Virus record (IMG/VR): IMGVR_UViG_3300016662_000110
Location: 1-45,488 of that record
From: a virus
Taxonomy: Duplodnaviria; Caudoviricetes
DNA: 45,488 nucleotides
Strand: one strand, 5' to 3'
This document shows positions 1 through 42,991 of this stretch, piece by piece. Position 1 is the stretch's first letter, and the number at the start of each line of letters is the position of its first letter. The notes under the pieces are model-generated. The model did not search any database and was not told the origin of the DNA. It was given only the letters and a program-made list of their open reading frames with translations. Position numbers and translations under genes: made by a program.

Positions 1-1350
1 ATGAGCGATTACGATAAGTATAAAGAAGATGTTACAGATGATATCAAAACTTGCATCGAGGCTATGGGCTGTCAGCCTATACTTTTCGTAGGGTCAGGTC
101 TTACTAAAAGATATATTGATGGTCCAAACTGGGAGGAGTTATTGCACTCACTTAGTGAGGTCTGCCCAGAGATCGACAAAAAATTTGCTTATTATTTGCA
201 GCGCTATCCGAACCTAGTAGATATTGGAACCGTTTTCTCGGAGAAATTCAATGACTGGGCATGGAGTGGTGGCGAAAATGAATTTCCAAGCGAACTATTT
301 GGCACGGGAAATGATCCAGATATTTACTTTAAGTATGCAGTTTGCGAAGTATTTAAAGGCTTGTTGAATGATGCAACCATCGCTGGTAACGATGAGGTTG
401 AGTTACTAAAAAAAATACATCCCCATTCAATTATTACAACTAACTATGATTGCTTGCTTGAAAAAATATTTCCTGACTATGCTCCTATAATTGGGCAGCA
501 AATTCTTTATGCCAATCATGCAAGTGTAGGGGAGATATTTAAGATACATGGATGTGCCTCGGAATCTGGAAGTGTGGTTATCACCAGAGAGGATTATGAT
601 AATTTTCTGAAAAAGAAAAAATATCTAAGTGCTAAAATGCTTGCTTTTTTTGCTGAGCATCCGCTTATTTTTATTGGGTATAGTGCAGAAGATCCAAATA
701 TCAGAGCGATCCTGTCAGATATTGATGAGATTCTATCCGAAAATGGTGCGCTAATTCCCAATATCTACCACTTGGAGTGGTCTAGTAAAGAGGTTGCTGG
801 GTACCCTAGGCGTGAACGCCTGATATCAGTATCAGAAAACAAGAGTGTTCGCATAAAAAGTATTGTAGCGAACGACTATAGTTGGGTGTATAAGGCTTTT
901 GGAGCTAATCAAGCTCTGGATAATGTTAATCCTAAATTGTTGCGTGCACTTCTCGCTCGAACCTATGAGTTAGTGCGCTCAGATATACCTAAGAATCCTA
1001 TCCAGGTTGATTATACTGTACTTTCAAATGTGTCTGAGTCTGAGGGGGCATTGGCTAAGCTCTACGGAATAGCTGATGCGTCAGATGGTCTCGCTTTTAA
1101 TGTAAACTTCCCTTTTACTCCATCAACCTTGGGGGTTAGTTTAGGTTATAAAGGCTGGCATGACGCAAATAAGCTGCTTGAAATTTTAAAGAATACTTCT
1201 GGTGTGGACATTAAGTCGTTCGATAATAAGTATCATTGTGCGGTGATGAATGGTAGCGAAGTTCAAGCGCACCGATATTCTAGTTTGTTGCGGCAGCTGC
1301 TTGAGAAGATTAAGGTTGGAGACGAATATACGTTGGATTTGCCAGCGTGA
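1..1350 (+). CDS. SIR2-family (SIR2_2-like) NADase-domain protein, candidate anti-phage effector
   Basis: Motifs FVGSGLT, IITTNYD, KIHG and LIFIGYS-EDPNI typical of defence-associated sirtuin domains; AT-rich; extra C-terminal domain. Confidence 0.85.
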   Translation: MSDYDKYKEDVTDDIKTCIEAMGCQPILFVGSGLTKRYIDGPNWEELLHSLSEVCPEIDKKFAYYLQRYPNLVDIGTVFSEKFNDWAWSGGENEFPSELFGTGNDPDIYFKYAVCEVFKGLLNDATIAGNDEVELLKKIHPHSIITTNYDCLLEKIFPDYAPIIGQQILYANHASVGEIFKIHGCASESGSVVITREDYDNFLKKKKYLSAKMLAFFAEHPLIFIGYSAEDPNIRAILSDIDEILSENGALIPNIYHLEWSSKEVAGYPRRERLISVSENKSVRIKSIVANDYSWVYKAFGANQALDNVNPKLLRALLARTYELVRSDIPKNPIQVDYTVLSNVSESEGALAKLYGIADASDGLAFNVNFPFTPSTLGVSLGYKGWHDANKLLEILKNTSGVDIKSFDNKYHCAVMNGSEVQAHRYSSLLRQLLEKIKVGDEYTLDLPA

Positions 1351-1448
1351 TTTGCTCTGTTGTAGTTTGCTAGGGGGGAGGTTTACACCTCCCTCCTGCC
1401 ATTTTGATGGCGCTAACTTAAAGTGTTTACAATTTTGGGACGTATAAA

Positions 1449-2684
1449 GTGAGCCAAGAAAAACCATATTCCTCCATAGAACCTTTGGTCCTGGCCTTCA
1501 TGGAAGGTGTGATAGGTAATTATCTAGCCCCATTGATGGCCTATGTACAAAAGAATTCAGAGCTCATCAAAACAGCTCCCGGCTTCCTGATAAATCCTGA
1601 AGAAATTGTTATATATGTCGGTAGGACGCATATAGCTATCGAGTACATTGGGTCGGAAATTTCTGCAGAGGTGAAAAAAGATTCGCTTTATAAGATGAGA
1701 ATTCATGATTGTTCGGTTAGTGAATGTAATATTTTTGAGAAAATTATAGGCTTTGAGTACGACTCAAATTCAAGCAGTATGTTTTCCTTGCCCTTGCCGC
1801 TCTTTAGTGAGGACCTAGTACTGCCAACAAATAAGGGGTGGGATAAACTTTCTGAGTTAAAATGGAATTTCGCAGCTCAGAGCAGTATTATGGGTTTTAA
1901 TGTGCCAAGCCCTGCTCCAATGAAAGGTCAGTTCACTAGGATTGTGAATGGTATTTTTTTTGATGCTGATGAATCAGGATTAAAAACTAGGCATATAAAA
2001 TGGCTGGACTTTTTTCCTATCCATTTTGATGGTAGTGATGAGGAGTTTGACCGTATTGGATTTGATTTGGGTCAGATTAAAGATATGGTCGAGCATGATG
2101 CGCATTACTCTTATCCTATGCCTGATGAATATAAATATATACAGTTGCCTAAGATAAATAGATTTATCGAGGTGTGGGGGAATTCAAAAAGTACGGAACC
2201 TGATATAACCTCTCATCTTTCAAAGGAGGAGAATAAATTCATTCTTACTATGAAGTTTGGCGCGAAGGATGTTTTCTCCGAGCTAACTTGTGAATGGCAA
2301 AGTGAAGATCGGAATAGTATAAGGCCTGATTTTTTTGTTGTGCAGCCTAACGGCTATGCAGATATTATTGAGTTCAAACTACCTGAGATTGACAAAAGCT
2401 TTGTTGTTGGCAGTCAGAATAGAGAGTCATTCTCATCTTGGCTGAATTCATATATTTCTCAAACTAGAGTTTATGCTACCTACTTTGATGATCCTAATAA
2501 TAGAAGTTGGTTTGAAAAGAAGTATGGGTTCAAGGTGCACAAGCCAAAAAGGTGGCTTGTAGTAGGGCGCAGAAGTGATTTTGCATCTGATGTATGGCGG
2601 GACATAATGTCCGACTACCGAGATTTGGAAATAATAACCTTTGATGATTTGATAGACGGAGTTGTGGTGCAGTTTTATAAGTAA
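1449..2684 (+). CDS. Shedu (SduA/DUF4263)-like PD-(D/E)xK nuclease with unknown N-terminal domain
   Basis: C-terminal RPDF...IIEFKLP...ISQTRVY...LVVGRR...EIITFDDL pattern; GTG start. Confidence 0.75.
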   Translation: MSQEKPYSSIEPLVLAFMEGVIGNYLAPLMAYVQKNSELIKTAPGFLINPEEIVIYVGRTHIAIEYIGSEISAEVKKDSLYKMRIHDCSVSECNIFEKIIGFEYDSNSSSMFSLPLPLFSEDLVLPTNKGWDKLSELKWNFAAQSSIMGFNVPSPAPMKGQFTRIVNGIFFDADESGLKTRHIKWLDFFPIHFDGSDEEFDRIGFDLGQIKDMVEHDAHYSYPMPDEYKYIQLPKINRFIEVWGNSKSTEPDITSHLSKEENKFILTMKFGAKDVFSELTCEWQSEDRNSIRPDFFVVQPNGYADIIEFKLPEIDKSFVVGSQNRESFSSWLNSYISQTRVYATYFDDPNNRSWFEKKYGFKVHKPKRWLVVGRRSDFASDVWRDIMSDYRDLEIITFDDLIDGVVVQFYK

Positions 2685-4100: not shown

Positions 4101-4337
4101 TCAGCTTACCTTCGACAAGTCTAGCGTCCACGTTTCGGCCGCAGCACTGACAGCGTAAGGCTGTACACCTGCAAGCTTCATTCGGGCGTATACCCTGCCT
4201 ACGATCGGGCGACGCGCGCCAGTCAGGACAAACTCCCAGTGATTGTTAGTCAACCACTGGATATGTTTTGAAGGGATTTGATAGCCGGTGATGGTGGCCA
4301 GCTCTTCGTCAGTTAGTGTTTCGCTTTGAAGTTCCAT
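4101..4337 (-). CDS. Excisionase-like protein (DUF4224 type)
   Basis: Small protein directly upstream of int; LTDEELATITGY...WL...G.RPIVGR pattern. Confidence 0.8.
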   Translation of the reverse strand: MELQSETLTDEELATITGYQIPSKHIQWLTNNHWEFVLTGARRPIVGRVYARMKLAGVQPYAVSAAAETWTLDLSKVS

Positions 4338-4405
4338 CAAGCAGCTCTCCTAGAGTGCTGGCTTTGCTGCCACGGATTATTCGCGAGAGTGTGGTGTGCG
4401 TGCAT
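4337..4405 (-). CDS. 22-aa leader ORF (MHAHHTLANNPWQQSQHSRRAA) coupled to xis
   Basis: ATG lies in the CACAGCACATG box; its TGA overlaps the xis ATG (TGATG). Confidence 0.4.
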   Translation of the reverse strand: MHAHHTLANNPWQQSQHSRRAA

Positions 4406-4425
4406 GTGCTGTGTACCTTGTGAAG

Positions 4426-4461
4426 CTGCCGCCGGGATCATTGGTGAGAGGCTGGCGGCAG
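4426..4461 (-). promoter_or_regulatory. Hairpin with CCTCTCACCAA loop (motif copy 1)
   Basis: Minus strand CTGCCGCC-AG-CCTCTCACCAATGATC-CC-GGCGGCAG. Confidence 0.6.
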
Positions 4462-4479
4462 GGTATTGCAGGTGGCGAT

Positions 4480-5301
4480 TTACAAAGTGGCTTCGTACAG
4501 CGGCACTTCGTGGATGGCAGCTCGAATTTTGTCGCGCACCGCGTTGTAGGCTTCTTCAAGCACTTTGTCCGGGCGCACCAGTTCGAACCACATCATCAAC
4601 CGGCCGTCCTGGATGCGATAACGGAAGCGCGCCGGAACGCAGAACGCATCGCCGCCAAGAAAAGGTTTCACGCCAATGAAGAACTGCTCCGGAATACGCA
4701 GCTGTCCAGCCTCGCCTGCACGACCATCGATCTCTTCGTTATAGGTCAGTTGCACTTGGCCATTGTCGAGACGGGTGCCCTGGCGGAAGCTGATATTTTT
4801 CTTGGCTTCGAGGGTTCGGCTGATTTCCAGCATGTCAGCTGCACCTGGAGCGTTTTGTTCATTGGCAGGCTGGGTGATATCCCATACGTTTTCTTCGATG
4901 AACTCGGCAAAAGTCGCTTGGTCCATGCGCTTGCGGTCGTTTTCCTTCCAGCGCCCCCACTCAACAGTGGTCGGGCAACGATAGGTCGCAACGTGTTCGC
5001 GCCATGCAGGGCTTTCTGGTTGGTGGTAATCGATAACCGCTGAGAAGGTTCGACCTTCTGGGCCGTTGCAGAAAACGGCGGTGGCAGAAGTGGCGAAGCG
5101 ATTCACGTAATCAATGAACGACTCCGCATCCAGAACGGTGAGCTTTTGCTTGGTGCGGGTTGGTGCAGGTAGCAGGTGCTCCAGGTTCTCGAGCGATACG
5201 CCATGCGGTACCAGCGCAATCGGCGCTGCCAGGCCAGGGTGGTCGACAGGCTTGCCAAGGGCTTGGGCCAGAGTGAACAGCTGTTGTAGGGCTTGTTGCA
5301 T
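4480..5301 (-). CDS. YfdQ/DUF2303-family phage protein
   Basis: SFIDYVNR, AVIDYH, QATFAEFIEEN, F.IG.KPFLGG, ARFRYR; ATG at 5301 with GGAG RBS. Confidence 0.85.
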   Translation of the reverse strand: MQQALQQLFTLAQALGKPVDHPGLAAPIALVPHGVSLENLEHLLPAPTRTKQKLTVLDAESFIDYVNRFATSATAVFCNGPEGRTFSAVIDYHQPESPAWREHVATYRCPTTVEWGRWKENDRKRMDQATFAEFIEENVWDITQPANEQNAPGAADMLEISRTLEAKKNISFRQGTRLDNGQVQLTYNEEIDGRAGEAGQLRIPEQFFIGVKPFLGGDAFCVPARFRYRIQDGRLMMWFELVRPDKVLEEAYNAVRDKIRAAIHEVPLYEATL

Positions 5302-5341
5302 TGGATGTGCTCCAGTGGGTAGTGCAAGTGGTGAGAGGTTT

Positions 5342-5683
5342 TTACTGGCTGACTTGCCGCAGTACTTCAGGCTTGTCATCGTTCACCGTCCGAAGCGGAA
5401 GATCCTGTTGGCGTGGGTCACGACGGGTGAGGTTGCCTTCGGGGGTCAGGAAGAACAAAGACGTGCCACGTGAAAGGGCCGGTTCTTTGGCTTTTACGTC
5501 CGCTTTGATAGTCATCTGGCCGTTGCCATCAGGCTTGTAGGCGAGCTTGATCGTCAGCTCGCCCCCTTTGCCTGTTAAACGAATGGCGTCGATCAGGCTG
5601 TGCTGGGTCTCGCTAAGCTCATCCAGCAGGCCGCCGGCTTCGATGTCGCGCAGGGTGTCAATGAATGGACGTGACTTGCTCAT
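5342..5683 (-). CDS. YfdP-like phage protein (usual partner of DUF2303)
   Basis: TGKGGELTIKL...FFLTPEGNLTRRDPRQ; adjacent to the DUF2303 gene. Confidence 0.7.
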   Translation of the reverse strand: MSKSRPFIDTLRDIEAGGLLDELSETQHSLIDAIRLTGKGGELTIKLAYKPDGNGQMTIKADVKAKEPALSRGTSLFFLTPEGNLTRRDPRQQDLPLRTVNDDKPEVLRQVSQ

Positions 5684-5737
5684 GTGCTGTGCCTCATTGC
5701 GTTGGTTTTTGTAGCCCCCCTGGATATCAGGGGGGAC

Positions 5738-5980
5738 TTAGGCGGCCTGGCTAGGTGCTTGTGCATCTAGATAGGCCGCCAACATGTGCAAATACACCAC
5801 TGGCTTTGCTCGGCTTGAGCGGTGTAGTCGCGTTACTTTCAGTGCGATGCGTCCGGCTTTGATTTCGCTGAGCAGGTAGCGATCAGTCCTGATGTGTGCG
5901 AAGTAGCGTTCGCGTACCGCCGTCAGACTGGGGCAAGGTGTGGCGAACTCCTTGCGCAGTTGATCGAGTGTGTTGCTCAC
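5738..5980 (-). CDS. Pyocin activator PrtN-family protein
   Basis: TLDQLRKEF...LTAVRERYF...IKAGRIAL...VYLHMLAAYLD; GTG start overlapping the upstream stop. Confidence 0.75.
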   Translation of the reverse strand: MSNTLDQLRKEFATPCPSLTAVRERYFAHIRTDRYLLSEIKAGRIALKVTRLHRSSRAKPVVYLHMLAAYLDAQAPSQAA

Positions 5981-6351
5981 GCTGGATCCTCCCCGTACCC
6001 CTCCTGTGGGAGCAGCAACTTGAGGCGGATTAACTCGGCCAAGCCTTCTTTGGTCTTCCCCATCGCCGCGGCACAAATGTGCCCCTCGCTGTCGGCAATT
6101 ACAGCGCCGTATGGGTATTCAGGGCAGCGGGTAGGGGTGACGTAAGCAGTCTGCCCGTCACTGATTACTGCATTTACGCAACGAAACACCTCGATCAGCT
6201 CAGCAGATGCCGCGGGAAGTGCCTCAAGCAGAGCAACAGCCTCTGCTGATGCCCCAATCATCGTGGCGCGACTGACGATGGCCGGGTTGTTGACGAATAT
6301 CGGGACCAGTTTCAAGGCGCCGATCGCTTGCGTGATGGCGTTCTGTTTCAT
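5977..6351 (-). CDS. Hypothetical phage protein
   Basis: ORF overlaps both neighbours by 4 nt in the leftward operon. Confidence 0.75.
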   Translation of the reverse strand: MKQNAITQAIGALKLVPIFVNNPAIVSRATMIGASAEAVALLEALPAASAELIEVFRCVNAVISDGQTAYVTPTRCPEYPYGAVIADSEGHICAAAMGKTKEGLAELIRLKLLLPQEGYGEDPA

Positions 6352-6629
6352 GCGGCGGCGTCCTTTTTAGCAGGGGTCACGGTGTTGCCCAGTTGCTTGC
6401 TTAACCAACTCACGCCGGGCTCTTTCACCATCACAACCGCGTAATAGCTGAAGGTGTTGATGTTCGCGTTCCAGCGACTGCGCGTGTCTACATACAGATA
6501 ACCCTGGTCTCGGTGCTTGCTGGCCAGCTCACCGTTCTGAGTCAAAATCCCAAGCTCACGTAAGCGACTGCGGAAGGCGCGTGGTTTCAAGCCAAGTAGG
6601 GCGGCAGTAGCATCCAGGGTTCGGTTCAT
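6348..6629 (-). CDS. Antirepressor KilA-C (ANT) domain protein
   Basis: AALLGLKPRAF..RLRELGIL...HRDQGY...VKEPGVSWL; AGGAG RBS before ATG 6629. Confidence 0.75.
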   Translation of the reverse strand: MNRTLDATAALLGLKPRAFRSRLRELGILTQNGELASKHRDQGYLYVDTRSRWNANINTFSYYAVVMVKEPGVSWLSKQLGNTVTPAKKDAAA

Positions 6630-6640
6630 GTGACTGCTCC

Positions 6641-7204
6641 TTAAGCCGCTGCGCGAGCGCAAAGAGCATTGAAGATCTCGTCCAGTTGGCCGGTCATCTG
6701 CTCAATCGTTTCGTCGTTGTGCACCACGAAATCGTTGTCGTGTATGGCTATCCCGGTTTCGCTGATATGTGGGTTCACATCGGGTGCGCTTTCGCGTAGC
6801 AAATGAATGACCAGTCCGCCTTTCTCCCGAACGAAAGCCGCTTCGTTTTCGAAACGAAGATCGCTAATCACAAAGCCGGAGGCTGCTGTGTTGGTTTGTT
6901 CGAGGAATCCAAGATTTTGCTCGGCCAGAAGCAGCCACAGTTCTGGGTGCACCTGATTACGGCCCCACTCGGTGCCCATCGACTGCATCAGTTCGCGTGC
7001 GGAGCGGCCTAGCCAGGCGATTGGCTGTTCTTTGTGCTCGTCGTCAAAGTCACGTGGGCTAAGGTTGAGGATGGTTGTTAGGCCTTCACGCAGCGGGTCT
7101 GCGAATGCGTAAGTCTGGAGGTTGTGCGTGCAGACTAGGTGTTTGGCAGCGGTTGTTTTGCCCGTGCGGGCGAGGCCTGCTAATCCAATCAGTAACTTTT
7201 TCAT
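6641..7204 (-). CDS. Deoxynucleoside monophosphate kinase
   Basis: P-loop GLARTGKTT, FADPLR, RELMQSMGTEWGR, VISDLRFENE, HISETG. Confidence 0.9.
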   Translation of the reverse strand: MKKLLIGLAGLARTGKTTAAKHLVCTHNLQTYAFADPLREGLTTILNLSPRDFDDEHKEQPIAWLGRSARELMQSMGTEWGRNQVHPELWLLLAEQNLGFLEQTNTAASGFVISDLRFENEAAFVREKGGLVIHLLRESAPDVNPHISETGIAIHDNDFVVHNDETIEQMTGQLDEIFNALCARAAA

Positions 7205-7392
7205 GCCGCACTACCTCCGAATGAGGAGGTGGTTTGAGCGGGTTGAGCGACCAGCGCGATTCGCTCTTTAGTGGTGATGATGACCAGAAGCCCTGTGCGG
7301 CGTTGAATGGCTTCAATTGAGGCGCGACTGGTGCAGGCTGTCGGATGTAGATAGATCCGGCAGCGGGCAACACTGTGCTGTGTCATATGCAT
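7201..7392 (-). CDS. Small hypothetical protein, first gene of the leftward operon
   Basis: 63-aa ORF with ATGA overlap into the kinase gene. Confidence 0.65.
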   Translation of the reverse strand: MHMTQHSVARCRIYLHPTACTSRASIEAIQRRTGLLVIITTKERIALVAQPAQTTSSFGGSAA

Positions 7393-7393
7393 G

Positions 7394-7422
7394 GCTCGTA
7401 CTCTTGGTGAGAGGTTTCGAGC
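7394..7422 (-). promoter_or_regulatory. Hairpin with CCTCTCACCAA loop at the 5' end of the leftward operon (nutL-like position)
   Basis: Minus strand GCTCG-AAA-CCTCTCACCAAGAG-TA-CGAGC. Confidence 0.6.
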
Positions 7423-7425
7423 TAA

Positions 7426-7468
7426 AGACTACAATTTAATTTGTAATATGGTCAACAGGCTAATTTGT
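7426..7468 (-). promoter_or_regulatory. pL promoter with two operators (OL)
   Basis: Minus strand TTGACC-18 nt-TAGTCT; operators ACAATTTAATTTGT (7431-7444) and ACAGGCTAATTTGT (7455-7468). Confidence 0.7.
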
Positions 7469-7484
7469 ATTATTTTCTTTTAAC

Positions 7485-7515
7485 AAAAAAAAGCCCGAAT
7501 TAACGGGCTTTTTTT
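7485..7515. terminator. Bidirectional intrinsic terminator downstream of cI
   Basis: A8-GCCCG-AATTAA-CGGGC-T7. Confidence 0.85.
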
Positions 7516-7528
7516 GTAGTCTGAATTC

Positions 7529-8287
7529 TTATCTCAGAACTGAATACCAGAAGACGCGGCCTAATACGACGATCTCCTCATTACGAATCTTCTCCGGAGT
7601 GTACTCCTCGTCCGGATACTCGTCGCGATTGAAGCTGCGCATCCTGATGCCGCCTGCAGGTAGGCGATACAGCATCTTCACTCGCAAATGGTCGTTATGC
7701 CTTAAGGCATAAATATCCCCATCTTTGATGTCTTTCCTTCCTTGATCGACCCCTACAGTGCTGCCGTTAGGGAGTACGGGCTCCATGCTGTGTCCTGAGA
7801 CGGTCACGCAAATTGCGTTTTCAGGATCAATGCCCTGGCGCCTTAAGGTCATCTTTCCGAATCGCAGTTTCGAGCGGGAGTGGTGCTGAACTGCTGTGCA
7901 GCCCGAACCTGCAGACAGCTCTATTTCCTTGAGCAAAGGGATTTCTACCTCGTCATCATCCAGCGGGGTTTCGTCGTCCCACACTTCAATCGGACCAAGC
8001 ATTACTGCGTCTGCAGTAACGGTATTGGGCGCTGTCTGTGTGGCTGGGCTTGTGCCGGCAACCTCATCCATAGATAGCCCAAGTACCTGGGCTATCTGGA
8101 GTGCAAATCGTGTGTTTTGAGTATTGCCGGCTTCAAACGCAGCATAGGTTTGCTGGCTGAAGGTTTCATCAGGGCCAAGGAGTTCGCGGACCCGGTCAGC
8201 AAGGGCTACCTGGCTTAATTTCAGGGCCTTCCTGCGGGTCTTGAAAAGTGAGGCTACAGGCGAGGGTGAGCGCGTTGGTTTATTCAT
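7529..8287 (-). CDS. cI: CI-like repressor (HTH + S24 peptidase; PrtR-like)
   Basis: N-terminal HTH; SAGSG cleavage site; GHSMEP catalytic Ser; LRVKML Lys. Confidence 0.93.
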   Translation of the reverse strand: MNKPTRSPSPVASLFKTRRKALKLSQVALADRVRELLGPDETFSQQTYAAFEAGNTQNTRFALQIAQVLGLSMDEVAGTSPATQTAPNTVTADAVMLGPIEVWDDETPLDDDEVEIPLLKEIELSAGSGCTAVQHHSRSKLRFGKMTLRRQGIDPENAICVTVSGHSMEPVLPNGSTVGVDQGRKDIKDGDIYALRHNDHLRVKMLYRLPAGGIRMRSFNRDEYPDEEYTPEKIRNEEIVVLGRVFWYSVLR

Positions 8288-8298
8288 GCTCAGAGGAT

Positions 8299-8364
8299 AC
8301 AAACCCTTTTGTATTGGTTCCAACACGTTAATTTGTTGCGATAATACAAATTAACATGTATTTT
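8299..8364. promoter_or_regulatory. OR region: three 14-bp operators and pR
   Basis: ACAAACCCTTTTGT (8299-8312), ACACGTTAATTTGT (8323-8336), ACAAATTAACATGT (8346-8359); pR TTGCGA-17 nt-TATTTT. Confidence 0.75.
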
Positions 8365-8393
8365 TCGTTTGTACTTTCCGCTTTGAGGTCCTC

Positions 8394-8651
8394 ATGAACC
8401 CAGCAACAGAGATGCGCGAGGCACTAGTGGACGCTGTGGACTCAGCCAAAGGCCAGGTCGCGTTTGCATCAGCCATGTCGACTTCTGAGCGGCCTGTATC
8501 TCAACAAATTGTTTCTTATTGGTTGAAGCGAGGTTTTTTGCCTGCTGAGCTGGTTGTCCGAGCTGAGCTTATTACTGGCGTTTCGAGATTTAGGTTGCGC
8601 CCGGATGTGTTCTGCATCCCAAAAGATCTTGAGTCAATCCAAGCAGCATAG
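8394..8651 (+). CDS. cro: Cro/YdaS-like repressor
   Basis: Divergent from cI; GQVAFA...VSQQIVSYW...TGVSRFRLRPDVF. Confidence 0.88.
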   Translation: MNPATEMREALVDAVDSAKGQVAFASAMSTSERPVSQQIVSYWLKRGFLPAELVVRAELITGVSRFRLRPDVFCIPKDLESIQAA

Positions 8652-8655
8652 AAGG

Positions 8656-8812
8656 TATCGACCCAGAACCTCTCACCAAAGAAACGCAGGGTCGATAGAG
8701 CAATACAGTTCTAGAACTACATAGCTAAAAGGGTGCTGGACCGGAGCCTCTCACCAAAGATCCTCCGGTCCAGCGACGACGATACACAGCACATGTACAT
8801 CGGTCGTAGTCG
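8656..8812 (+). ncRNA. Structured element between cro and cII: two hairpins with CCTCTCACCAAAGA loops and a third presenting CACAGCACATG
   Basis: Stems TATCGACCC/GGGTCGATA (8656-8697) and GCTGGACCGGAG/CTCCGGTCCAGC (8735-8774) differ in sequence but share a 14-nt loop sequence. Confidence 0.6.
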
Positions 8813-8867
8813 TAGGATAGGGCGTGCCCTGTTTTATGGCTACACCGTAAAAGGGGTTTTTACGGTT

Positions 8868-9356
8868 ATGAGTCGCATCGATCTATTACCGGACGCTGGT
8901 CCGGTGCTTTCATTGCGTCACGCGCTCTATCGCGCAGGACGTTCCTACAAGGGTGGTGTCACCGCACTTGCATTCGCAATGGTGATCGACAACGACTCCC
9001 TGCAGAAGAAACTCAAACTCGACGAAGAACGCCGCTGGCTTACGCCGGATGAGCTGGAGGAGGTGATTCGCCTCACGGCTGATCCGCGTTTGCTCGATGC
9101 CTTAGTGCGTCCAGCCGGGGCCGTTTGGTACAAGCCAGCGCCAGTGCCTGCAACAAAAGAAGCGTTGAAAGCGGTAGGCAAGTTGCTTCATGAGTCTGGC
9201 GAGTTTGTGTCTTGCATGCACGACGGTGTGGCTGACGCAGTTTGGGAGTCACACGAAGTCGCCATTCTTGAGAAGCGAGGCATGGACGTTATCCGCGAGG
9301 TACTGGGCATCATGGCCGGCGCACGCCAGGCAATGGAGGATCGCTATAATGGCTGA
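8868..9356 (+). CDS. cII: Phage CII-family regulator (possible alternative in-frame start at 8793)
   Basis: YKGGVTALA...LQKKL...LT.DE...D.RLLDAL; located after cro. Confidence 0.75.
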   Translation: MSRIDLLPDAGPVLSLRHALYRAGRSYKGGVTALAFAMVIDNDSLQKKLKLDEERRWLTPDELEEVIRLTADPRLLDALVRPAGAVWYKPAPVPATKEALKAVGKLLHESGEFVSCMHDGVADAVWESHEVAILEKRGMDVIREVLGIMAGARQAMEDRYNG

Positions 9357-13076: not shown

Positions 13077-13274
13077 GCGCTGACCGTTTGTCGGGGTGAC
13101 TTACCTCAAACCTGCGTCAAAGTTGCGTCAAAGTGAGTAGAGCAGAATGACCGAAAATCCCCACTTTTCGGTTTTACCGAACAGGGGTAAAACGTACCCA
13201 CGATATGAATTCTGCGCCTAAGCGCTCCCCGAGCACGTGCTGTGCACCTCGCCCTGGTCTACACCAGCGCACTG

Positions 13275-13310
13275 AAAACCCTGCCCACCCCGGCGGGGTT
13301 TTCTTTTTTC
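13275..13310 (+). terminator. tR'-like terminator before the holin
   Basis: GAAAACCCTGCC-CACCCC-GGCGGGGTTTTC followed by T6. Confidence 0.8.
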
Positions 13311-38427: not shown

Positions 38428-38444
38428 TAAAGGTCTTGCATATT

Positions 38445-39239
38445 ATGTCTTACCCTATCATCCCTTGGATGGGCGGCAAACGCCGCCTGGCTGACCGCCT
38501 TATCCCTCTATTCCCACCCCACGAATGCTACGTCGAAGTCTTCGCCGGCGGCGGGGCGCTGTACTTCCTGCGCCCACTGCCTGCACCGGTCGAAGTGCTT
38601 AACGACATCAACGGTGACCTGGTGACCCTGTACCGTGTGGTGCAGAACCACCTGGAAGAATTCGTGCGCCAATTCAAGTGGGCCCTCAGCTCACGGCAGA
38701 TTTTCGAGTGGCAAAAAATGACCCGCCCCGAAACCCTGACCGACATCCAGCGCGCGGCCCGATTCTTCTACCTGCAGCACCATGCCTTTGCTGGCAAGGT
38801 TTCAGGGCAGAGTTTTGGGACCGCTACAACAGCCCCTGCAATCAACCTTCTGCGGATTGAAGAAAACTTGTCTGCAGCCTGGCAGCGCCTGTCCGGCACC
38901 TACGTCGAAAACCTGCCCTGGCTTGAGTGCGCAGAGCGCTACGACCGGGTCCACACCTTCCACTATATGGACCCACCTTACTGGCAGACCGCTGGTTATG
39001 GAGTCGACTTCCCGTTTGAAAACTACGAGCGCATGGCTGACTTTATGCGGCGCTGCAAAGGCAAGGTGATGGTCAGCATCAACGACCACCCGGACATCCG
39101 GCGGGTGTTTGAAGGGTTTCATTTTGAGACGACCGAGATCCGATATACAACCACGAATCAGAGGCAGGGGAAGGCTGAGGTTACGGGGGAGTTGATTATT
39201 ATGAATTGGGAGCCAGAGGCTTTGGGTGGCTTGTTTTAG
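38445..39239 (+). CDS. DNA adenine methyltransferase (D12/Dam family)
   Basis: WMGGK, YVEVFAGG, LNDIN, DPPY. Confidence 0.95.
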   Translation: MSYPIIPWMGGKRRLADRLIPLFPPHECYVEVFAGGGALYFLRPLPAPVEVLNDINGDLVTLYRVVQNHLEEFVRQFKWALSSRQIFEWQKMTRPETLTDIQRAARFFYLQHHAFAGKVSGQSFGTATTAPAINLLRIEENLSAAWQRLSGTYVENLPWLECAERYDRVHTFHYMDPPYWQTAGYGVDFPFENYERMADFMRRCKGKVMVSINDHPDIRRVFEGFHFETTEIRYTTTNQRQGKAEVTGELIIMNWEPEALGGLF

Positions 39240-39347
39240 GGGGAGATCTCTTGCAAATGGAACCCTCGCAAAGCCTAGCTTGAAGTGCTCGGGGTGTTCC
39301 TCTCGTCGAAAATGCCTACAGACGAATTGACCAGAACCACGCGCCGC

Positions 39348-39375
39348 AGTTAACTGTATGTACATACAGTTAACT
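39348..39375. promoter_or_regulatory. LexA box inside a perfect 28-bp palindrome
   Basis: AGTTAACTGTATGTACATACAGTTAACT; core CTGTATGTACATACAG at 39354-39369. Confidence 0.92.
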
Positions 39376-39388
39376 TAAGGCGTTCGTC

Positions 39389-39817
39389 ATGAGCTTCACT
39401 TCTCTGGGTCCAATTGCTGAAGGAGGCATTCTCCTACCTCTTTGCTCCTTCAAGGTTCCAGCCGGATTTCCGTCACCTGCAGCGGACCATATCGAGAAGC
39501 AAATCTCGTTAGACCAGGTGCTGAACATCCGTGCTCCGCACGTTTACCTGGTATCAATCGATGGCGATAGCATGCAGGGCGCCGGTATCTATTCCGGGGA
39601 TCTGGCTGTGGTCGACCGTTCAATCGAACCTGTCCATGGCAATGTGGTTGTCGCGCTGCTCAATAACGATCCGATTTGCAAACGTCTTTGCTTGCGAGAA
39701 AAGAGGGTCATTCTCCAGTCTGAAAACTCGAAATACCCCGACCGGCATGTGCTTGAAGGCGACGATCTTTCCATTTGGGGAGTGATCACTCACACAGTGC
39801 GCAGCCATGGCAATTAA
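39389..39817 (+). CDS. umuD: Pol V accessory subunit UmuD/RulA
   Basis: [23 protein letters not shown]. Confidence 0.95.
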
Positions 39818-41087
39818 GCCAGATCCAGTTTTCGCGCTCATAGACTGCAATAGCTTCTATGCCAGTTGTGAGCGTGTATTTCGTCCTGATTTGGCCAAAG
39901 TACCCATCGTGGTACTGAGCAACAATGACGGCTGCGTGATTGCTCGTAGCTATGACGCCAAGCCCCACGTGAAAATGGGAGAGCCGTATTTTCAGATAAA
40001 ACATCGCCTGGAGAAGCTGGGCATTGTCGCTTTCTCATCGAACTATGCGCTGTATGGCGACATGAGTGAGCGAGTCATGAGCTTGATCGAAGCGATGGTG
40101 CCAGCGGTGGAGGTTTACAGCATTGATGAGTCATTCGTCGACCTGACCGGCATAGCTGACGCTTCGGCCATGGGCCGGAAAATACGCAGCCGCATATTTC
40201 AATGTACCGGCATTCCAGTAGGTGTAGGGATCGCTCATACCAAAACCTTAGCGAAACTGGCCAACCACACCGCGAAGCGATTGCAGTCCCATACGGGCGG
40301 TGTTGTGAACCTTTGCGGGGACTTCGAGCGCGATTGGGTGCTGCGCAATACAGCCGTGTCTGAGGTCTGGGGAGTCGGCCGGCGAATGACCGTGCACCTT
40401 GAAACACTGGGTATCCGCACTGCCATGGACCTGGCCAAGGCTGATGCGTGGACGCTTCGTAAGAAATTCAGCATCGTTCTTGAGAAGACCGCTCGCGAGT
40501 TGGCAGGGACGCCTTGTCTTGAGCTGGACGAGCCCGATCCGCCAAAGCAGGAAATCTGTTGCAGCCGTATGTTCGGCAAACGACTAACTGAGTTAGGACC
40601 AATAAAAGAGGCTGTGGCCACCTACATGATGCGCGCCTCAGAGAAGCTGCGGGCGCAGAAGTCTTACTGCAAAAAGGTCCGTGTCAGTATCCGCACCGGT
40701 ATGTTCAATCCTGATGAGGCCAAATACGCCAAGGGAGTGGTGGTAACGCTTCCTTACCCCACTGACGATGTACGTCTACTGACAAGAGCTGCAGTGGATG
40801 CACTCGACCATGTGTTTCAGCCCGGATTTAAGTACAGCAAGGCAGAAGTCCTGCTGCTGGATCTTCGGCAGCCTGGTGAGTTTTCGGACGATCTGTTTGC
40901 GGTAAATCAGCCGGCAGAAGCATCCCGAGTGATGGCAGTCCTTGATGAAATCAATGGTCGCTGGGGAAGGGGGACGCTGCGTGCTGCGAGTGTGCCGAGC
41001 AACCCGGATTGGGGGATGAGGCGGGGGATGATGAGTCAGAACTATACGACGCAGATACAGCAGCTATGGCAGGTGTCTTGTAGGTAG
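39807..41087 (+). CDS. umuC: Y-family polymerase UmuC/RulB
   Basis: [24 protein letters not shown]-terminal W.MR....S..YTT. Confidence 0.96.
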
Positions 41088-41439
41088 GGTAAAGGTGGGG
41101 TGGTTTATCAGTCGGTCAATCGCTGGAGTCGGGGGGAGCAATAGAGGCTGAAAAGCGTCGTCCTGATCTTCAACAATCGGCCAATAGCAGACGCTCGCGA
41201 ACGACGACTATAAAAAACGGATGCCTATTGACAGCCAACCAGGCGGCTGACACGACTCACCGGACATTGCTGGCGTTCAAGACCAATGCCTTCAACTGGT
41301 CTAAAGCTACATCGATAGCTTTAGGGGTGAGTCGCAGGCACCGGTGGCCTAGTGTTGAAAGCACTAGCAACATGTCAGACGTAAGTGAAGGGAGTCTCGA
41401 TGAGCCAAATATCAATTTGGTCATGATTTTGAGAACTCT

Positions 41440-42840
41440 TCATTTTCCCGGTCGTAGAGGACCTTTTTTTTGCCAGGCTGCTTTGTTACCCGCACGCCCA
41501 GGGACTTGCTCCAATTGATCTCTATCTCGTAGTCTATAGAAAACTTCTTTCATGGTGTTTTCGGATTTTATTCCCGTAATCTCGCGACCAATCCCATTGC
41601 TGATTTCAAGGTTTTTTTCCAAGTACTCCATAACGAGTTGCTCTGGCGAGCCAAGATTTTCATGTCGTAGTATTACGAGTACCGAGTTTTCTTTTTCTTG
41701 GATAATTGGCTTCTTAAGTCTAAGTTTGTTCATTGCTTCGAAAGTTGTCCTCAGTCCTTCGCCCACGTCTTTGTTTGGTGGGTTTTTGAATTTGTTGATG
41801 AGGCGGACGATTTTAGGGTTTCTTGCAAATTGAGTTTTGGTAGCGGTGTCTACAGTAACGTGTCCCGGAAGCCTTCCAGGGCTTTCGATCTCAATACGGT
41901 TGTCAAATATTCTAACCTGCACGTCTGATGCAATGCTGTAGTCGCGATGTAGTACAGCATTTGTCAAAACCTCATGAAGTGCCTCGTCGGGGTACGAGAT
42001 TGGCTCCAAGCCATCTGGTCCTAATTTTTTTATGCCTTCTACAAGCTTTTTGCACGTGTCTACAGAGTCATAGATTATATCGTATAAAGATCCTTCTATT
42101 GTCATAGGATCAAAAGCTAGAAAGTCCCTCTCCCCATTATCTTTAGTTTGATAGCGAAGGATTTTTACTGCAGAACGCTTTGGAAGTATGGCTTGAGGCA
42201 AATCTGAGTAAAGTAACACAGCTGCGACTGAAGGTCTTTTACCCACAGCGACGCGTTGTTTGGTGAGCCATTCTTCAGGCTCGGACGAGGGCAATACATT
42301 AATTAGGAATTCTAAAATGACGAGCGAATTGCTTACTTCTTCGATATTTGCATTGGTTAATTCATCTTCAAAGGATTTTATTCCTTTGTCATATTTAAGG
42401 CGTTCAATCGATGCGTCCCCGTCTACAGGCAAGTTTTGTGAGCTTCTACGAACATAAACCTTGCCATTTGATGCACTAAGAATCTCTTGGGATTTGAACA
42501 GCGTAAGATGCAAAACTACTCCGTCGGCTTCATCAGACATAAGAAACTCAGCGGAATAATGGTTTCCCAGTGGGCTCATTGCTTCTAAAACTTGGAAGAA
42601 GGCATTGGCCTGCTCTTGATCTGCGAATCCGCGCCAAGCTCGTTGCTTTCCCTCTAACCCTTCAACTTCCTCGACGCCTAAGAAAATCTCTCCGCCGCTG
42701 GTATTACAGAACGCTGCTATGGTTTTTGTCAGGCTAGCAGGTGATATTCCGACGCTTTTGAGGTCGATGAAGTGGCTCTCCTCTATGGTGAGGAGTGAGG
42801 CATGCTGGTCTGCAGTTAGGGCTCGAGCGGGGATGGTCAT
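41440..42840 (-). CDS. AlbA_2 (Schlafen-like) + HATPase_c_4 + winged-helix protein
   Basis: EESHFIDLKS...IAAFCNTSGGEIFLGV; YP..ALHE...NA..HRDY, IFDNRIEIESPG.LP, RNP.I, G.G; C-terminal ISN...REITG. Confidence 0.85.
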   Translation of the reverse strand: MTIPARALTADQHASLLTIEESHFIDLKSVGISPASLTKTIAAFCNTSGGEIFLGVEEVEGLEGKQRAWRGFADQEQANAFFQVLEAMSPLGNHYSAEFLMSDEADGVVLHLTLFKSQEILSASNGKVYVRRSSQNLPVDGDASIERLKYDKGIKSFEDELTNANIEEVSNSLVILEFLINVLPSSEPEEWLTKQRVAVGKRPSVAAVLLYSDLPQAILPKRSAVKILRYQTKDNGERDFLAFDPMTIEGSLYDIIYDSVDTCKKLVEGIKKLGPDGLEPISYPDEALHEVLTNAVLHRDYSIASDVQVRIFDNRIEIESPGRLPGHVTVDTATKTQFARNPKIVRLINKFKNPPNKDVGEGLRTTFEAMNKLRLKKPIIQEKENSVLVILRHENLGSPEQLVMEYLEKNLEISNGIGREITGIKSENTMKEVFYRLRDRDQLEQVPGRAGNKAAWQKKGPLRPGK

Positions 42841-42991
42841 AGAGGAATGCACTCTCAAAAGTACCGATCATACAACTAATCGAGAGATAAGTACGGGGGC
42901 CGAGAGCTCGCCACAAGCGGCGTATTGGGTGCTCGTTGGAGGCCGATGCGTATGGAACGTTTTTAAGGCTAGCTAAGGGCCGGTATTGGCC

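Follow-up and report, generated by a model that had tools for sequence, protein, structure and literature searches.

The virus record IMGVR_UViG_3300016662_000110 (Duplodnaviria; Caudoviricetes) was analysed over its whole length of 45.5 kb (45,488 nucleotides (nt); hereafter the window). Its early region has a lambda-like layout with a minus-strand left arm, cI and a plus-strand right arm. We show here that a repeated 10-letter word, CCTCTCACCA, lies at translation starts of left-arm genes and that the gap between cro and cII, when read leftwards, holds hairpins whose loops are complementary to this word and to a second one, CACAGCAC. The stems of these hairpins covary, promoter elements are conserved in front of them, and loops and targets change together between related phages. 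We propose that the gap encodes a trans-acting antisense RNA, likely driven by CII, which would block translation initiation of left-arm genes, and we put the probability of this reading at about 0.7. An earlier note on this DNA had described the word as a candidate nut/put-like RNA system and had named an antisense RNA as the last of its options; it is this last option that the data favour. The element is real and conserved. It most likely represents a so far undescribed antisense RNA with several targets instead of a nut/put system. No description of it was found in the literature within our view, which did not extend to papers under subscription, supplements on bioRxiv or large catalogues of phage RNA; one of these may hold it.

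Repeated word and predicted small RNA

Five exact copies of CCTCTCACCA lie at 4442-4451, 5329-5338 and 7405-7414 on the minus strand and at 8669-8678 and 8747-8756 on the plus strand, as had been reported, and no further exact copy occurs in the whole window. An order-2 Markov model predicts 0.083 copies (P ~3e-8, or ~0.016 when corrected for all 10-mers). Since three other 10-mers likewise occur five times in the window, the count by itself is modest, and placement and conservation carry the case. The flip of strand across cI holds in 105 cII-anchored relatives, where 214/215 left-arm copies of the core CTCTCACC are on the minus strand and 142/142 copies between cro and cII are on the plus strand; five of these loci are without the core word in the early region, four carrying variant words and one being cut. 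The stems named in the earlier note fold as it claimed, with only a weak stem at the 5329 copy, and enclosing stems of at least six Watson-Crick pairs surround 74% of 286 distinct sites, compared to 20% once the flanks are swapped and 7% once they are shuffled. The description of the word as a loop sequence is correct insofar as the enclosing stems are real, but a small inner stem is predicted to take up some letters of the word (CUC/UCU). Likewise, all copies are intergenic given the conserved starts (yfdQ ATG 5301, cII ATG 8868), while longer mechanical open reading frames (ORFs) overlap two of them.

A conserved loop on variable, covarying stems points to a signal at the RNA level and not to a DNA operator, as had been suggested. 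Stem covariation and strand bias, on which the earlier note had made its case depend, are both present in homologues. Neither the window nor any of seven related loci gives an Rfam match at gathering score, and at E values up to 10 the region 4200-9000 gives 22 matches, only weak rows of the terminator type. An exact repeated word close to the switch might be expected of a double-stranded operator for CI, Cro or the PrtN-like protein. However, the word is non-palindromic, strictly strand-polarised and placed within variable stems, and one word type extends across 13 of 21 clusters of repressor N-termini, with five clusters mixing types (136 loci, 60% identity); we give an operator hardly any weight.

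The RNA that would be read leftwards from the gap is fully antisense to the cII leader. Its first unit (8727..8807, minus strand) is predicted to present, from the 5' side, a hairpin with seed b, the complement of CACAGCAC plus AUG, then a GC-rich hairpin with seed a, the complement of CCUCUCACCA (8747-8756), and then a short U run (8727-8730). A covariance model scores this unit with 100 bits on the minus strand, its sequence having been in the training set. Among 31 hand-chosen, single-unit homologues, 98.3% of the cells are paired and 11 of 25 pairs are changed on both sides (0/500 shuffles), statistics that are inflated by the relatedness of the sequences. Three columns of the seed-b stem, mostly G-U in these homologues, switch to Watson-Crick pairs on the minus strand. 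The predicted extension, unit 2 (8650..8726, minus strand), adds two hairpins, a spacer and a second one with seed a (8669-8678), and ends at the cro stop codon; here the model matches at 8645-8709 with 23.9 bits. Relatives carry one to three seed-a hairpins. In 125 of 180 loci the minus strand has at least four T among the eight letters following the last stem, versus 9 for the plus strand, where the stretch counted is not fully comparable in multi-hairpin arrays.

The covariance model has a match in 15 of 151 sampled genomes of one genus, the unpublished G149 being among the 15 and used for no other count. Because isolated phages carry the element (PG1, pAN, H4907, KT1, Lodos and Meadow), direct testing is possible. 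The RNA of the Stutzerimonas phages pAN and PG1 (L239/L240) is longer; it has at least three different loops, two of its hairpins carry seed b, and the target classes are separate. A further relative, L066, has a rearranged cro-cII region in which the -10 element and the RNA hairpins are lost and the left-arm target words are retained.

Left-arm targets and their joint change with the loops

All three left-arm copies of CCTCTCACCA lie 20-55 nt upstream of start codons. The second word, CACAGCAC, which like the leftward promoter was absent from the earlier note, abuts the AUG or occupies codons 3-6, with an additional site at 5691. When distinct sense copies in main-type loci are counted, the seed-b word stands exactly at -8 in 151/293 and at +10 in 97/293. 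The seed-a word lies near a start in 252/269, compared with 463/1494 random positions; opposite-strand copies give 5 and 1. Scoring 45 start regions of the window with the predicted seeds places the four left-arm sites at the top, a ranking that is partly circular since the seeds were chosen from the match, and the start regions of int, cI, prtN and the kinase gene have background scores. The two-word pattern is confined to the prophage in five of five host genomes (12 matches, control 0).

The most constant target of the predicted RNA is the leader hairpin at the start of the pL transcript, in front of an ORF of 63 amino acids (aa) (7375..7414, minus strand). The seed-a word occupies 7405-7414 and the seed-b word codons 3-6 (7375-7382), and the 3' arm of the hairpin contains the Shine-Dalgarno (SD) region of the ATG at 7392. 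The second target is the yfdP-like gene (phrog_204; 5683..5695, minus strand), in which GAGG is followed by CACAGCAC at 5684-5691, abutting the ATG at 5683. This site has the second word only, and its duplex with the predicted RNA comprises 13 nt (-23.8 kcal/mol). The third target, yfdQ (DUF2303; 5301..5338, minus strand), has the first word only, at 5329-5338, 27 nt before the ATG at 5301 and with no strong stem; in many relatives the seed-a word of yfdQ adjoins the SD. The fourth is an ORF of 22 codons (4337..4451, minus strand) with a seed-a hairpin (4442-4451), an SD, CACAGCAC at 4406-4413 and an ATG at 4405. Its stop codon overlaps the ATG of xis at 4337, a gene assigned from PHROGs/Pfam, and this TGATG overlap suggests that the short ORF is translationally coupled to xis. 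In most relatives, the same regulated start drives a longer gene, unlike the 22-codon ORF found here (4337-4405), which looks like a remnant kept for coupling. The targets lie 1.3-4.4 kb from the RNA gene, in the other early operon.

Such a distribution bears on the nut/put interpretation, according to which the five copies would be equivalent sites in the sense of both transcripts, acting in cis on RNA polymerase from pL and pR. One copy in the pL leader and two between cro and cII indeed correspond to the layout of lambda and HK022. However, the other left-arm copies are found at internal start codons 2-3 kb downstream, and those of the gap lie behind a leftward promoter. Moreover, the early ORFs include no N-like protein, the stems vary freely while the loops fit distant start regions, and an Rfam match is missing here as well. 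Equivalence of the five copies does not hold, and we consider antitermination sites very improbable.

The antisense reading is carried further by the joint change of loops and targets. A set of 191 distinct loci from Pseudomonas, Stutzerimonas and Halomonas phages was compared, in eight of which the word type is unassigned. The pL leader shares at least 8 nt with its own gap in 176 of the 191 and with the opposite strand of its own gap in six. The gap of a locus holds the core of its own pL leader in 132/132 loci for CTCTCAC, 7/7 for CTCTGAC, 13/14 for CACTCAC, 7/7 for CACTTAC, 10/10 for CCCACCAC and 1/1 for CCTTCCAC, with few off-diagonal matches. In the Halomonas phage H4907 both seeds differ from those of Pseudomonas phages, as do their targets, and for each seed the match to the first pL gene extends over 13 nt; in phage pAN two different loops fit two target classes. 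Furthermore, all five loci that have only the GTGTTGT form of seed b in the RNA carry CACAACAC before an ATG.

A protein could in principle produce part of this pattern. An RNA-binding protein of phage or host might read the words in the sense of the pL and pR mRNA and control translation, including that of cII, with the leftward promoter only supplying cI. Every copy does lie in the sense of the early transcripts, and a reader protein and its sites can co-evolve, as is the case for N and boxB of lambda and P22. A structure model of the 63-aa protein also gives several weak KH-domain rows, none of them significant (best E 0.88, TM score <0.5). However, two unrelated words change together, the matches reach 11-14 nt with locus-specific flanks, and near-identical 63-aa cores accompany different words (97%, 93% and 83% identity across types). 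A protein would also leave unexplained the predicted transcription start at the foot of a hairpin, the G-U columns of the minus strand and the U runs. We therefore regard a protein reader as unlikely. The 63-aa ORF itself, proposed earlier as a candidate reader, is better described as a target; it is without an Arg-rich motif and its sequence is independent of the word type.

Putative leftward promoter, proposed circuit and setting

In front of the first hairpin lies a putative leftward promoter that resembles pE of coliphage 186 (8814..8842, minus strand), with a -35 element TAGCCA (8837-8842), a spacer of 17 bp and a -10 element TATCCT (8814-8819). The predicted +1 at ~8807 coincides with the foot of the hairpin. 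Across 82 distinct loci the -10 element reads TATCCT in 76, TACTCT in three and TATTCT in three, and TAGCCA is found at 17 bp in 66; one rearranged locus is without the -10. The promoter scores under the threshold of a consensus scan. An inverted repeat of the form 7-N13-7 (8842..8868, without strand) has half-sites centred near -38 and -58 relative to the predicted promoter and is a candidate CII site. Its geometry is shared by three different sequence classes, the half-sites matching at 7/7 positions in Stutzerimonas-type and Halomonas-type pairs and mostly at 5/7 in Pseudomonas, with several rows off by one base. The repeat also overlaps the cII ribosome-binding site on the pR mRNA. CII of phage 186 binds an inverted repeat at -38/-58 of pE, and pE is nearly silent without CII (PMC6593788). 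The predicted driver is the adjoining CII-like activator gene of the 186/CP76 type (8868..9356, plus strand; PF06892, E 7.7e-14; phrog_101), the profile of which matches PDB 6vmh/6vli, 'Regulatory protein CII', weakly (E 0.06).

We propose that CII would bind the repeat at -38/-58 and turn on the leftward promoter, comparable to pE of phage 186. The transcript would end partly at the U runs behind the seed-a hairpins, giving RNAs of ~80 or ~160 nt, and would partly continue through cro to supply cI. Seed a would pair with the CCUCUCACCA loop of the targets, and seed b would cover the SD-AUG spacer, the AUG or codons 3-6, so that ribosomes could not load. The 63-aa ORF, yfdP, yfdQ and the xis-coupled ORF would then be turned down; int would stay untargeted, and integration and lysogeny would be favoured.

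The same antisense RNA might instead activate its targets by opening leader hairpins that hide the SD, or it might work mainly via mRNA decay or Rho-dependent termination. The position of the SD region inside the 3' arm of the pL leader hairpin would suit activation, and for both activation and termination there are precedents, since IsrK is described to activate by remodelling its target and the P4 CI RNA to cause termination (PMC4825925). However, seed b spans the SD-AUG spacer and the AUG in the 151 copies at -8, a position in which it would block initiation, and we judge this variant to be quite improbable.

Several results weigh against an antisense RNA that represses translation. Transcription of the predicted RNA is suggested by sequence features, and a transcript was not observed. 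The preference for repression over activation is argued from geometry alone, and the inverted repeat may merely be an mRNA hairpin over the cII start. Leaders of the CCCTCAC type match their own gap in only 4/11 loci and the one of the CACCTAC type in 0/1; related loci are not independent, and the word types number about seven. Seed a is partly closed by the inner stem. Compared with shuffles, the folds of the two strands are about equally strong (z -5.4 and -5.2). A first count of G-U versus A-C in the seed-a stems, in the sense of pR, gave 13 versus 71 and weakened with more loci: the larger set has 25 versus 101 cells, yet 11 versus 19 distinct contexts (p 0.2). As the left-arm control hairpins are also richer in A-C, this strand test failed its control, and a wobble test on the seed-target pairs was confounded. 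Cofolding with the RNA yields gains of -14.4 kcal/mol at the xis-coupled ORF and -18.5 kcal/mol at yfdP, but the gain is small at the pL leader (-4.5 kcal/mol) and 0.0 at yfdQ, loop-loop kissing being outside the model.

A second source of seed b may exist in the late leader, where GTGCTGTGCA, the same word as seed b of the predicted RNA, lies before the holin gene (13237..13246, plus strand), followed by a terminator at 13274-13303. Of 136 distinct late leaders, 112 have the word at offsets 44-50, and its flanks vary. It is gone in three of the five loci whose targets have changed to CACAACAC and unchanged in two, so that positive covariation is not seen, and the best Rfam row reaches 30.8 bits against a cut-off of 55. 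We take a late-leader RNA as a lead. A two-RNA, RNA-guided layer of the lysis-lysogeny switch can nevertheless be sketched, in which a CII-driven multi-seed repressor of the left operon would set the Int:Xis ratio without a promoter of the lambda pI type, and the late-leader RNA would hold genes down in the lysogen by seed b. One seed type is common to phages with many different CI repressors, and thus a prophage could restrain heteroimmune relatives. This wider picture is tentative and we hold it to be rather doubtful as a whole.

If the antisense reading is true, a multi-target trans-acting RNA is added to the lambda-like switch of common temperate phages of Pseudomonas, Stutzerimonas and Halomonas. 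It suggests how integration could be preferred to excision without int needing a promoter of its own. The natural variants of seeds and targets would be ready compensatory controls and orthogonal RNA regulators for Pseudomonas.

The element is housed in a switch formed by the cI repressor gene (7529-8287, minus strand) and cro (8394-8651, plus strand). The minus strand encodes int, xis, yfdQ, the yfdP-like gene, a PrtN-like gene, a KilA-C fragment, a nucleotide kinase and the 63-aa ORF. Beyond cI, the plus strand encodes cro, the CP76/186-type cII, a TraR-like zinc finger protein and a primase. The best cII relatives (96-98%) are found in genomes of Pseudomonas kulmbachensis, lundensis and weihenstephanensis. 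A pL promoter is predicted at 7426..7455 (minus strand), with -35 TTGACC (7450-7455), a spacer of 18 bp and -10 TAGTCT (7426-7431); a TTGAC/TATTG pattern recurs in relatives, and the promoter was not flagged by the consensus scan. Repeats of the ACAAATTA type, distinct from the 10-mer, occur at pL (7430-7475) and pR (8320-8362) and are likely CI operators. Past the cI stop codon, a hairpin at 7484-7515 with A and T runs on both flanks is likely a bidirectional terminator; it is the source of most of the weak Rfam rows. The 63-aa ORF is the first pL gene (7204-7392, minus strand) and is present in 248 of 264 cII-anchored loci. Its family has invariant H16, P17 and G34, belongs to no Pfam family and has no Arg-rich stretch, and the structure model is a weak helix-strand-strand fold (predicted local distance difference test score, pLDDT, 63). 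Further away, the right end (38436-42858) encodes a Dam-type methyltransferase, an umuDC-like pair and an AlbA_2/RecG-C gene. At the other end (1-2684, plus strand), the AT-rich DNA adjoining the integrase gene carries two genes that are likely anti-phage cargo, one of them SIR2-like (PF13289) and the other encoding a Shedu SduA C-terminal nuclease domain (PF14082).

Comparison with known phage RNA systems

For the C4 RNA of phages P1 and P7, Citron and Schuster reportedly described in 1990 a scheme with two seeds, a and b, two-part targets near the start codon and matched changes of seed and target. The RNA predicted here resembles this scheme in its two exposed seeds and in two-part targets at translation starts that co-vary between phages, and it resembles C4 (RF01695) in being a structured phage RNA predicted to repress phage genes by pairing. 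It differs in that no RF01695 match is found, neither at gathering score in the window and seven related loci nor at E values up to 10 in the region 4200-9000. C4 is encoded by the phage, pairs with phage transcripts to repress their genes and is required for lysogeny, and it sits within the c4-icd-ant operon that it controls (PMC8198154). Here, in contrast, the RNA lies on the opposite strand of the cro-cII gap and the targets are in the pL operon; the window genes show no match to the icd family, and no icd/ant pair lies behind the RNA. The C4 rows compared are closed by a basal stem, whereas the present RNA is a train of hairpins. In a few rows of the c4-a1b1 and Pseudomon-2 motifs, which have no Rfam accession, both words are absent as judged by eye (Weinberg 2010).

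A likeness to the P4 CI RNA and to IsrK/STnc1160 of Gifsy-1 lies in several complementary sites within an early transcript by which lytic genes are held down (PMC4825925). Processing of a precursor by RNase P is a trait of the C4 and P4 CI RNAs, the latter being an RNase P substrate (PMC5499578). The P4 CI RNA is cut from the transcript it controls, between seqA and seqC, and causes termination (PMC4825925). The RNA described here would instead have a separate leftward promoter and act at the start codons of up to four genes, which are not placed on either side of the RNA gene within a single transcript, and it has no Rfam match. With pE of coliphage 186, the analogue of lambda pRE, the system shares a CII of the CP76 family and, at the start of cII, a weak leftward promoter with an inverted repeat at -38/-58. 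Unlike in 186, the operon layout is lambda-like with divergent cI and cro, and the accessible part of the 186 source mentions no trans-acting seed loops for the pE leader.

Phage antisense RNAs that bias the decision between lysis and lysogeny include OOP and aQ of lambda and Sar of P22, and aQ acts alongside pRE and pI (PMC12197685). These RNAs are described there as cis-encoded against one overlapping gene, whereas the present RNA would use short seeds for several unlinked genes. Three copies of the word are placed just past pL and between cro and cII, like lambda nut and HK022 put. However, the first pL gene encodes no N with an arginine-rich motif, and instead of one cis site per operon near the promoter there are three seed-a sites in the left operon, two of them at internal start codons. 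Read from the leftward promoter, the loops of the cro-cII gap are the complement of these distant sites.

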